Source: Rhizodiscina lignyota (lineage: Eukaryota). From it: 64,000 nucleotides of DNA. The translations under genes were made by a program, and so were the position numbers. This document shows positions 3,457 through 7,605 of the stretch, one piece after another (the first letter of the stretch is position 1; every line of letters begins with the position of its first letter). The notes beneath the pieces were generated by a model. That model did no database searches, was not told the origin of the DNA, and saw only the letters and a list, made by a program, of their open reading frames with translations. The stretch lies in assembly GCA_010015805.1 (NCBI GenBank), contig ML978121.1:806001-870000 (forward strand). Reading direction: 5' to 3'.

Positions 3457-4635
3457 ATGACTCTTCAAATCAGCGATGGACCGGAAGTAAACTTTTCCTC
3501 TCCTCCTGAGATTCTCTCATTAATCTTCTTCAGCAGAACAGCGAGCGAAGCAGCTCCTGCGTATGAAGACCAGAGCTGTTCTTCAACAACACTCAACGAG
3601 CTTGTCCTTCACGACGACGGCATCATGGGTTCTTCAAATTCTACAGAAAGAGCCATCTGGGATATGTTCAAAATCGGCGATGCATTCCATCTCGTTCCAT
3701 CGGCTTTCTGCGAAGCCATATCCAAAGTACTCTCGGCCTTGGAAACGACGTCAACGAGCTTGTCCCAGCTTCGTGCCTGCAACAAGGAACCACCGCAACT
3801 TAATGCACTCACCTCACATTGCCACGAGCTCTACAAGGCATATGTCGAGGTCGAACAGGTGTTCAAGGTCTACGCCAGAGTCTGGGATCCCGAAGAAGAC
3901 CTCGGTGTTGATCCCCCATTTGACCCAAAACTCATCGGAACAATCGCCTCGGTGCACTGCGCACTACAAGTTGCTCAAGCAAGCGTTTCTCGAGTCATTG
4001 GCCCCAAGAAGCACACAGGAAATCCACCAGAGTTCGAGGAGGCTGAAAAGCAGCTGGCACAGCAAGTCAAGCTCATTCAAGAGTTCCTGCCAATCATGAA
4101 GGCCGACCTCGATGAGTTCGTTCAGGTTGCTAAAGCAGTAGAAAATGTTCCGTCGTACATTAGGCTCGATGCCTTCATTGCGCCACAGTATCATAACGGC
4201 AGCATCGAGTCTCTGCGCGACGCGTTGTACCAACTCAAAGACGAACTTGCCACGGTTTTGAAGACGGTCCAAGAGCCATTCGGAGATGGCATGGCTGACT
4301 TCTTGGACGTGAACCCGGGCCTCGCGGACTTGCCCATGGAACTCGCAGAAGTCTTTAACGCCATCAACGAGGCACTCACCAACAACGGATCGGAATGGAT
4401 TGAGTCGATGCTCGGTGGGAAGCTGGCGTACAACGAGTTCCTGAAGATTTCGCATGATGACATCAGAGAGTTCAGATACGATTTCAGACAACTTCGAGCC
4501 AATTTTGTGCGGATGCGCGCATCCTGCCGTGCAAAGAACGGGACGTTGGCCGTTTGGGACGTCATCTCTGAGATCCGTAAGAAGGTGGCGGAGCTTCGGA
4601 AAATGTTCAAGGTTCCCGATACAATGGAATATTGA
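3457..4635 (+). CDS. Hypothetical helical protein
   Basis: 392-aa ORF with coding-like codon bias; possible short intron near 3487-3533; no family recognised. Confidence 0.6.
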   Translation: MTLQISDGPEVNFSSPPEILSLIFFSRTASEAAPAYEDQSCSSTTLNELVLHDDGIMGSSNSTERAIWDMFKIGDAFHLVPSAFCEAISKVLSALETTSTSLSQLRACNKEPPQLNALTSHCHELYKAYVEVEQVFKVYARVWDPEEDLGVDPPFDPKLIGTIASVHCALQVAQASVSRVIGPKKHTGNPPEFEEAEKQLAQQVKLIQEFLPIMKADLDEFVQVAKAVENVPSYIRLDAFIAPQYHNGSIESLRDALYQLKDELATVLKTVQEPFGDGMADFLDVNPGLADLPMELAEVFNAINEALTNNGSEWIESMLGGKLAYNEFLKISHDDIREFRYDFRQLRANFVRMRASCRAKNGTLAVWDVISEIRKKVAELRKMFKVPDTMEY

Positions 4636-5415
4636 GTGTCTAGGTGGATGGGTGTGAAGGTTGAGCGGCTGCTTTGCTCACGAAAAGTGACTTTGGCATT
4701 GTCATGATGTACAACAATTTATGTCAGCATGGCGCATTTCGTCGATATTGATGGGACAGACTTGAGCTTGTGTCCATTGCTTGCTCCCCTTTGCTTCAAA
4801 AGAAAAATGTCTGGTACTATCAAGAACACGCAAATCGTGGACAGTTTTGAGCAGAATGAAAACCTGATGTTCTCTATCCTCCATTATGACCTCCAGCTTG
4901 CACCAACCACAAACCTGATATCGGCCAGCCTGTGAGTTTTGAAACGACTTTCTTCATTGAAGGGCAAACGCCTAACACAACTCTCTATGGAAAGGCCGCT
5001 GGGAGGTCTCAGTAACCCCCTTTTGTTTTGGGACTCGAGTGTACATGATGAAGAGCACTCGTTGAACACATCGTCTCTTAGGAAGGCCTCAGGGTGATAA
5101 AATAGTCGGCCGTTGGGCACCTCGTAATATCTAAGCGTGAGCGGCTCTTACACTTCAAGGAAGGCGAGATCATTCCTGAAAGCATATTGCTGCATTCTCA
5201 GGAGTGTATTGGAGGTGCAAAGGATTTAGCAAATGCTCGTTGATTGACTATCATACATCTTTTGGACCTATGCTCAAACGGTCGAGCCTGCCACTGACCT
5301 TACCTCGAGTGGGAAGTAAGAGAGTATGCTACACTGACGAAAGAAACCCCCATCCTTAATACGGTATACTCACCCCCGAACGCCTTAGTCGAATGCGGAA
5401 GGGGTAAGAGAGCAC

Positions 5416-6738
5416 TCAATACCTTCGCTTTTGGCGAGACTCGTGGTCATCACCACCACCTTGATACGGCCTCTTGCGATGATGGTCCTCGCGATCGCGG
5501 TCGCGGTATCCGCCGCCGCCGACGGGCTCACGGTTGCTGCCACTGGGGCCGTTGCGTCGATCGTCGTACCTGCCGCCACCACGGTCGCCACCATAGCCGC
5601 CATCTTGACGTCCACCATACCCACCCTCACGCGGTCCGCGCGGGCCGGAAGGAGCACCCTCAGGAGCACGGCCTGAGCCAAAGCCGTTGGACTGGTAGCC
5701 GATACCACCTCTTCCACCATAGCCGCCTCGGTCTCCGCCACCGAATCCACCACGGAACCCACCTCGGTCGCCGTAGCCACCGCGGAAGCCACCGCGGCCC
5801 CGGAATCCTCCACCAATGCCTCCACGTCCGCCGTACCCACCACCGGGTCCACTTGGAGGGAACCCACCAGGTCCAGATGGACGAGCTGGGAGAGCCTTGG
5901 TGTATCCACGTCCACCTAAGCCTCCACCATAACGACGGGGTCTCCAGTTGGGAACAGTGCGGCCGCGTTCGACGTCGACAACGACCCTGCGTTCTTTGAT
6001 TCTGATGCCATCGGTCTCCTTGTAGGCAGCTGCAAGCGGTGAGAGTAACATTGAGTAAGCCATACTTTACCTTGGATAGAATGGCTTGTCTTAGGCAAAG
6101 GGGGGAGGGGTCTAGATCGCAATACCTTTCATGTCGCTTTCCTTCTCAAACACAATGAAAGCGTAACCTCTGTTCTTCTTATTCTTAGGCGCATCTTTCG
6201 GGGCAGTGACGTCGGTGACGATGCGAATCTTCAAGATTACAAGTCAGCCGTATAGTATTAGATCCGTGCAGCTAGGATACTCACTCTCTGGATGTTGCCA
6301 AAGCGAGAGAACTCGCGGCGGAGGTCTTCGGCCTCCACATCGTACTTCAAGCGACCGACGAACAGCGTCTTGAACTCATTACCCTGAACCTCGGGGTCTT
6401 TTCGCGGATCGTCTAAATGATAACATAAGTAGGGGTAATTTCGCAGCGTGGATGTTGCTACAAGTGCACAGCATACAGGTATGAGTAAATTCTTCGAGAC
6501 GTTGTTTGGCCTTCTCCTTCTTCTCTAGCTTCTTGCGATCGCGCTTTTGAAGCCAGCTCTCCGTCGGGGCGTCAGGCACCTGCTTGTCATAGTCGCGCAA
6601 TGCTGTCAGGTATTGGCCTACGCCATTGATGTTATTCGTGTGGCGGTCTTGCGGAGTATGGTCAGAAGGAGGAAGGTATCGAAGAGCTGGTCGGGGCGCG
6701 AAGAGCGCGAGGAGGTTTGGTGGAAGCTTGTCCGTCAT
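5416..6738 (-). CDS. SNP1: U1 snRNP 70 kDa protein (U1-70K/Snp1)
   Basis: N-terminus [20 protein letters not shown] with RGYAFIVFE and [28 protein letters not shown]-rich tail; three introns (about 6477-6414, 6284-6229, 6125-6030). Confidence 0.96.
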
Positions 6739-7060: not shown

Positions 7061-7605
7061 ATGCCGGTCGCCGCGATACGGGCGGTATCGAAGGGCCAGG
7101 TATACATGCCACTCTTCAATACCCAGATTTGTGACTAACATCCATTCCAGAACGGCGTCGGTGCATTCATCCTGCAATGCAAGAGACTCGACTTCCACTA
7201 CTGCGATTGGGCAGGGAGCTCAAAGGGCATGAAGTATGGCAACTATAAGTATGGTTTAGAAGAAATCTCACTAATTGTGCCCTCAGTGCATTCCTAAAGC
7301 ATGATCTCCCGACTTTCGCCCGCGCAAATCCCTCGATCGAAATCACAGTCTCCCCCCGACCGCGACGGCATCCCGTGATCCGCGGCCACTATATCAACGG
7401 ACGAGAGAGGGTGATCTGTGTGCGCAATCTTGAAAAGGCCCAAGTGCAACAGAAAGCAGAAATACTGAAGAATGCGAACGGGGAGAAGGTCAAGCGAGTC
7501 AACAAGCCTGTGGGCAGTCTGAATGAGAGCGTTAGAGGCGTATGGGACCCATATCGGGGAGGCGCAGTGAGCGTAAGAGATGTATTGGGCCTGCCAAAGC
7601 GGTGA
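7061..7605 (+). CDS. MRPL51: Mitochondrial 54S ribosomal protein mL43 (MRPL51)
   Basis: Spliced translation MPVAAIRAVSKGQ/NGVGAFILQCKRLDFHYCDWAGSSKGMN/AFLKHDLP...HPVIRGHYINGRERVICVRNL; two GT-AG introns. Confidence 0.92.

Follow-up and report, generated by a model that had tools for sequence, protein, structure and literature searches.

Does the 3′ UTR of the U1-70K gene of Rhizodiscina lignyota carry sites through which U1 snRNP could adjust the supply of one of its own subunits? An initial annotation of this locus, which lies on the minus strand of a 64-kb window (the whole stretch of DNA analyzed here), had described two successive hairpins directly behind the stop codon that sequester 5′ splice sites (donors) by pairing them with a U1-like strand, and had read them as a sensor of U1 snRNP dose. 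In our analysis, this interpretation was partly supported, as the conservation of the donors in related fungi supports, at the level of sequence, a regulatory role connected with U1. What we describe is a real, conserved donor pair that probably serves U1 autoregulation.

Donors and hairpins behind the U1-70K stop codon

The coding region of U1-70K occupies positions 5416..6738 of the minus strand and consists of four exons (6738-6477, 6412-6285, 6228-6126, and 6029-5416), whose combined length accounts for the 368-aa protein P0003; over the searched region, this protein and the window are identical. In a profile search, PF12220 and RRM_1 both scored far above their cut-offs for this gene (6738-5416). 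The protein ends in RRY-stop, a C-terminus common to nearly all of the 120 homologues listed, which argues that the stop at 5418-5416 is real. Both hairpins and donors of the window lie in the presumptive 3′ UTR of this gene. Possible 3′-end signals, picked up by a motif scan (5205..5258, minus; AUGUAU at 5258 and AAUACA at 5210), are located 3′ of both donors, and the next ORF beyond the stop is convergent, with its end at 4635. On its other side, U1-70K is arranged head to head with a mitochondrial ribosomal L51/S25-domain gene (7249-7605, plus strand), a layout that is also seen in two of the relatives described below, L016 and L031.

Donor 1, GGG/GUGAGUAU (5366..5376, minus; GT at 5373), lies 42 nt past the stop, and donor 2, GAG/GUAAGG (5296..5306, minus; GT at 5303), 112 nt past it; going by these distances, both would be inside the transcript. 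A third donor-like site, AAG/GUCAGU (5293..5301, minus; GT at 5298), overlaps donor 2 and had previously been missed. It resembles the GUAAG-GUCRG tandem of lichen-type relatives, a likeness only, as covariance models did not demonstrate homology. The 5′ end of the genome's own U1 snRNA reads AUACUUACCUU. Donor 1 is complementary to this end over its full 11 bases (11/11, 3 of them G-U; -12.2 kcal/mol), as are just three sites in 528,000 bases on both strands, donor 1 included, and donor 2 forms 8 contiguous pairs with it (-10.2 kcal/mol). The three real coding-region donors of the gene are weaker than either of these, at -1.9, -7.8, and -5.5 kcal/mol. By their motifs, the signals of the gene's own introns are weak: a CTRAY branch motif is absent from intron 1 (6476-6413, minus), and AAG forms the 3′ end of intron 2 (6284-6229, minus). 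The genome as a whole holds seven U1 snRNA-like loci (L001-L007), of which three keep the 5′ end AUACUUAC, while it is altered in the other four.

The 9-mer CUCUCUUAC is present twice in this region (5412-5404 and 5324-5316, minus). In hairpin 1 (5369..5408, minus), CUUACCCCU (5408-5400) pairs with GGGGGUGAG (5377-5369) over donor 1, and in hairpin 2 (5298..5321, minus), UCUUACUUC (5321-5313) pairs with GAGGUAAGG (5306-5298) over donor 2, around a loop of 6 nt; each stem comprises 9 bp, of which two are G-U. Read on the minus strand, the stems, the repeat, and the two donors had all been described correctly. The stems also held up in folding, as the MFE and centroid folds of regions of 131 nt and 221 nt all contain both of them, with predicted pairing probabilities of 0.94-1.0 across donor positions -3 to +5. 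The suggested bias toward the mRNA strand was likewise borne out, both for hairpin 2 (-9.1 kcal/mol, z -2.6, vs. -6.2 kcal/mol, z -0.07, on the opposite strand) and for hairpin 1 (-17.0 kcal/mol, z -1.9, vs. -13.2 kcal/mol, z -1.2).

As a background set, we used 194 G/GTRAG sites from 264 kb of the same genome. A local stem of at least 9 bp covers the donor at 15 of these 194 sites, and CTTAC is found at most 45 nt upstream of the donor at 3 of them, which makes two masked donors in succession uncommon. The predicted cost of opening is 8.9 kcal/mol for donor 1 and 6.6 kcal/mol for donor 2, values equalled or exceeded by 20/194 and 57/194 background sites, respectively. A 9-mer repeat was found in 113 of 1680 background windows of 118 nt, and a scan of the whole 64-kb window against Rfam 15 gave 0 matches at the gathering score. 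Judged on the window alone, the donors stand out more than the stems, which are suggestive rather than decisive.

The donor pair in fungal relatives

Relatives were taken from a metagenome scan with 357 confirmed loci, 80 of which were listed; the 64 non-fungal loci were set aside before counting. Among the matches listed, 16 loci are fungal, and 15 of these extend past the stop codon (L008 is without a stop). The 15 loci are not independent, as they represent five lineages in two groups; with the window, three broad groups were sampled. Twelve of the loci among the matches listed, six of which were tested, are closest to Mycoblastus or Imshaugia proteins (Lecanoromycetes) and are referred to as lichen-type. 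The remaining three fungal loci, L016, L030, and L031, are unplaced.

Lack of conservation in relatives had been named beforehand as grounds for refutation. The donors are conserved: all 15 fungal orthologue loci among the matches listed contain exactly two G/GTRAG sites within 140 nt past the stop, and over the first 500 nt, these loci have 2-5 such sites on the sense strand vs. 0-1 on the antisense strand. In controls, for which ORF ends are a mere proxy for gene ends, the two-site pattern was found in the window's own genome at 1 of 134 ends of ORFs of at least 200 codons and at 2 of 420 ends of ORFs of at least 120 codons, and 9 of 4024 130-nt windows show the donor pair. The relatives' own loci have it at 4 of 124 ORF ends, and 3 of these 4 are the U1-70K UTR clusters seen in another frame. 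Inspected by eye, the genome's own U1C and LUC7 genes have no G/GTRAG in the first 250 nt past their stops.

Just 3-18 of 24-31 degenerate third positions are identical between lineages, which indicates that the donor pair has persisted, or was regained, over long periods. In L016, L030, and L031, the coding region is a single uninterrupted ORF, from MTDKL to RRY, while the window and the lichen-type loci have introns; the UTR donor sites thus persist without any coding intron. Each of nine representatives (9/9) has a site that forms at least 8 contiguous pairs with U1 and surpasses in strength the real donors of the gene (-1.9 to -7.8 kcal/mol for the latter). Among the matches listed, the distance from stop to donors is 66-130 nt in all 8 relatives checked, and in L016 and L030, the donors are only 10 nt apart. 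The search for further orthologues found none in viral contigs and two short unrelated matches in prokaryote genomes.

Lichen-type loci also have a conserved GG/GUGGGUCCC, a weaker donor-like site, about 30 nt past the stop (e.g., L060:3806-3816). From its sequence and position, it may correspond to donor 1 of the window.

Possible modes of feedback and the role of the stems

We consider it likely that U1 dose feeds back on U1-70K, whatever the output. As to that output, we tentatively propose negative feedback through splicing of a 3′ UTR intron and nonsense-mediated decay (NMD). Local stems would mask the two strong U1-complementary donors in the U1-70K 3′ UTR, surplus U1 snRNP would capture a donor, and this capture would cause an intron in the 3′ UTR to be spliced out; the spliced U1-70K mRNA would then go to NMD, and U1 capture would thereby lower the level of U1-70K mRNA. 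In the window, the predicted opening cost of 6.6-10 kcal/mol nearly offsets the gain of -10 to -12 kcal/mol from pairing with U1, with a predicted net gain of about -3 kcal/mol (+2 to -6 kcal/mol in relatives). Because cost and gain nearly cancel, the masked donors would be marginal sites that are sensitive to U1 concentration.

Splicing followed by decay is favored by the location of the donors 66-130 nt past the stop in the eight relatives checked, by branch and acceptor motifs in six of eight representatives, and by precedents from Neurospora, in which splicing is described as permissive (PMC4408805) and mRNAs having 3′ UTR introns as degraded through the EJC and NMD (PMC7746235, citing Zhang and Sachs 2015). 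The branch motif (C/U)ACUGAC is found downstream of the donors in 7 of the 8 relatives used as representatives, the exception being L070, which ends early, and in 6 of the 8, a YAG lies within 45 nt of it. The full set of donor, branch, and acceptor is found in lichen-type loci and in L016. Five lichen-type loci have an intron-like architecture of 70-80 nt. In the window, the sole pair of weak branch and YAG within the first 270 nt of the UTR is a candidate (5294..5320, minus) made up of CUUAC at 5320-5316, in the 5′ arm of hairpin 2, and the acceptor CAG at 5296-5294. Together with donor 1, it would delimit a possible intron of 80 nt, and the CUUAC arm may thus double as a branch site. Intron 3 of the window gene reads GGCUUAC where lichen-type relatives read GACUGAC.

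Several points weigh against splicing and decay. For decay, a junction must usually lie more than 50-55 nt past the stop in mammals, and one at donor 1 would be only 42 nt away. In addition, a motif scan found no CTRAY branch motif in the first 690 nt of the window UTR, leaving the weak CUUAC as the only candidate. Finally, the branch-like ACUGAC of the lichen-type loci also partners the donor-bearing arm GGUCRG and could owe its conservation to structure alone; in L016, the MFE fold pairs ACUGAC with GUCAG, which that of L030 does not. Two other routes to splicing were rejected. A micro-exon (YAG/CAU...donor) would leave an upstream intron of at most 45 nt without a branch motif, and exon definition of an upstream acceptor is ruled out for the intronless group of L016, L030, and L031.

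The same sensor could also work without splicing, which we regard as possible, if rather unlikely. U1 bound to the terminal exon would block cleavage and polyadenylation, or export, in the manner of U1 interference, with two sites acting in synergy and stems damping the effect, as in human U1A. That the window UTR has no consensus branch site fits this reading, as does the preservation of both sites in the three intronless loci, and donors 10 nt apart, as in L016, L030, and the distal lichen-type tandem described below, cannot both be spliced. As described in PMC2367729, U1 interference needs the length of pairing found in each representative (at least 8 contiguous U1 pairs), its two sites synergize, and stems occlude them; retention of mRNA in the nucleus of human cells by 5′ splice-site motifs, through U1-70K, offers a further parallel (PMC9074902). 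These precedents are all mammalian, however, and our literature search found none for filamentous fungi. The complete donor-branch-acceptor sets in lichen-type loci and L016 also argue against a sensor that dispenses with splicing, as does the lack of a conserved PIE-like partner element: a single U1A-like heptamer occurs in 3 of 9 UTRs, and its position is not kept. The same 9 UTRs contained no U1-70K loop-like motif that would mimic U1 stem-loop I.

Both the proposed splicing and a block without it would draw on masking of the donors by stems, and this sequestration was partly supported, in that predicted masking recurs in the relatives. The first donor of lichen-type loci is placed in UCUUCCCU-loop-RGGG(U)AAGG, in which 47 of 48 cells are paired vs. 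29-75% in slid registers, and this 23-nt hairpin is 78-91% identical between lineages vs. 53-67% for the last intron. About 400 nt past the stop, the lichen-type loci have a tandem GUAAG-GUCRG-GUAAG in a hairpin of 17 pairs (93% paired), and in L016 and L030, the main donor is paired with a downstream arm. Opening the main donor is predicted to cost 6.5-13.3 kcal/mol in 9/9 representatives vs. a median of about 4 kcal/mol for 20 background RGG/GTRAG sites. Compared with their own shuffled flanks, most individual sites differ in opening energy by no more than one standard deviation, and best-of-two masking comparisons gave P values of 0.03-0.31 per locus.

The arms themselves are not the same in the three groups, differing both in sequence and in the side on which they lie, and the covariation check proposed for the orthologues revealed no significant covariation in the donor-masking stems of the relatives: the proximal lichen-type stem has two one-sided changes and no two-sided, compensatory change, and the 2 pairs with double changes in the distal stem were equalled by 213 of 500 shuffles. 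Covariance models built from the lichen-type loci (R1 and R2) found neither window stem at E values up to 10. Homology of window hairpin 2 with the lichen-type stem, which fits by eye, was not taken as demonstrated, as both models miss it. Because the models do not bridge the groups, masking is a recurring prediction and not a demonstrated homologous structure; on the predicted folds, gating of the donors by hairpins is plausible. The U1-mimic strand of the initial annotation was rejected as a selected feature. The arm is not conserved in relatives (the proximal lichen-type arm reads CUU-CCCU, without the A, and the U of the donor is bulged), and as full pairing with GURAG demands CUYAC, any arm that fully pairs a donor reads like the U1 5′ end, so that CUUAC gives no separate evidence. 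More generally, "U1-mimic" arms call for no explanation beyond donor pairing.

It is conceivable, though on the unlikely side, that only the donors matter and that the window hairpins are incidental, since a C/U-rich UTR easily pairs with G-rich donors without any selection for masking; this would be compatible with either mechanism. Viewed in this way, it is no surprise that the overall stability of the region is unremarkable (z 0.01), that 8/60 and 9/60 shuffles of the flanks match the opening costs of donors 1 and 2, respectively, or that the three groups differ in their arms, the proximal lichen-type stem has no compensatory change, and the covariance models fail to bridge the groups. Harder to reconcile with it are the lichen-type arm, which stays paired across lineages that have diverged at synonymous sites, the small share of background donors under 9-bp stems, and the high opening costs of the main donors in all representatives.

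An improbable explanation is a 3′ UTR intron that is constitutive or otherwise regulated, with no relation to U1 dose, in which the extra donors are alternative ends and stems tune the choice between them. The 70-80 nt architecture of the five lichen-type loci and the possible 80-nt intron of the window agree with such an intron. For this, one donor would do, however, yet the pair is kept in all loci among the matches listed, is stronger than the coding-region donors, and outlives the loss of all coding introns, and the gene product is itself a U1 subunit. Very improbable is an origin by chance, or as signals of a transcript from the plus strand, where the reverse-complement sequence, CACUGAC..CUUACC, is branch-like. 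CACTGAC at 5293-5299 (plus strand) and the convergent neighboring ORF would fit it, but it is largely refuted by the conservation of the donor pair, which goes with the U1-70K stop even though the neighbors downstream vary in identity and direction among relatives, and by a control rate below 1%.

Relation to known U1-dependent systems

The proposed feedback of U1 on U1-70K, by splicing and decay of its mRNA, has several partial counterparts. The human U1A 3′ UTR contains a bipartite U1 site that inhibits polyadenylation (Guan et al. 2007, RNA 13:2129, as described in PMC2367729). As in that system, a consensus U1 site (here with 11 and 8 contiguous pairs) is found past the stop of a gene for a U1 snRNP protein, and the site is set in damping base-pairing in the terminal exon, which here is predicted. 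Held against the U1A criterion of phylogenetically conserved pairing, stems are predicted in all groups, with a lichen-type conservation that comes without double changes and is not bridged to the window. Gene and kingdom are different, and while the single U1A site, as described, works together with a U1A-bound PIE, the fungal UTRs have at least two sites with predicted masking and lack a conserved PIE-like element.

In the U1-70K gene of vertebrates (SNRNP70), a cluster of donors in intron 7/exon 7a is rarely spliced, binds U1 snRNP, and closes a negative feedback loop involving NMD (PMC3798272). Gene and conserved donor cluster are shared with the fungal case. The vertebrate donors are intronic, however, and bring in a premature stop by activating an acceptor upstream of them, whereas the fungal donors follow the normal stop; this route is excluded at least in L016, L030, and L031, in which the coding region is intronless. 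The switch model as set out in PMC3798272 also has no masking by stems. U11/U12-65K likewise encodes an snRNP protein and has conserved donor-like sites in tandem in its 3′ UTR, where a USSE with a conserved U1 site ties the fate of the mRNA to snRNP level (PMC5473595). Its U11 sites belong to the minor spliceosome and, as described there, select an alternative acceptor and a long UTR, whereas the fungal sites are of the major type (G/GURAG), complementary to U1, and in predicted hairpins.

The plant 45ABC element of RBP45 genes (PMC13485355) shares with the window two hairpins and a donor embedded in a stem, and is described as feeding back negatively, via NMD, on a factor associated with U1. 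It is an intronic cassette exon opened by binding of RBP45, unlike the fungal element; the sequence comparison made here was the Rfam scan, which was blank. We did not class the fungal element with U1A, the vertebrate switch, or the USSE, since the defining feature of each (PIE, intronic donors, and U11 sites, respectively) is missing. By analogy, it would be closest to the human U1A site in its working, and would reach the same end as the intron 7 donors of vertebrate U1-70K.

A term search of the main text of two fungal structured-RNA screens (PMC5640933 and PMC8216456) found neither U1-70K nor snRNP, and our literature search, which covered titles, the openings of abstracts, and few subscription papers, returned no fungal U1-70K 3′ UTR element. 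In the literature found, the matching of U1-70K supply to U1 snRNP has been worked out only for vertebrates. With a short and conserved 3′ UTR element that can be mutated in haploid, transformable fungi, such matching would become open to direct testing, which would reveal whether binding of U1 past the stop can repress a fungal mRNA by splicing-linked decay or by a 3′-end block, the latter of which was not found for filamentous fungi in the literature searched.

A wider reading, which we consider speculative and unlikely, is that all major groups of eukaryotes use structured decoy donors for the autoregulation of U1-70K by U1. Filamentous ascomycetes would have moved the sensor to the 3′ UTR, where a latent intron would have both its donors and its branch site masked by stems, and only surplus U1 snRNP would license a self-destructive splice. 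If this were true, the loop would survive the complete loss of coding introns, as in L016, L030, and L031, and donor hairpins in the U1-70K intron of land plants would be a parallel. The main text of PMC12218528 makes no mention of U1-70K.

In land-plant-type loci, a long U1-70K intron contains two conserved donor-like sites about 110-120 nt apart (e.g., L009:2244-2405, L012:2533-2705, L036:2545-2713, and L061:78-245). Site 1, CCYUG/GUAAGGG, with its donor in a short C/G hairpin, was found in 33 of the 38 loci scanned among the matches listed, and site 2, AAG/GUKAGCAYGGC followed by a stem, in 30 of these 38, with a consensus fold of 14 pairs, 2 of which show double changes.

A donor-like site is also present inside intron 3 of the window gene (AAG/GUAAAG, 6073-6063, minus; GT at 6070), and its 7 contiguous U1 pairs beat the real donor. 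Splicing at this GT would insert an in-frame stop, yet leave an intron of just 41 nt. Among the matches listed, AAG/GU is similarly placed in 5 of the 7 relatives that have the intron.
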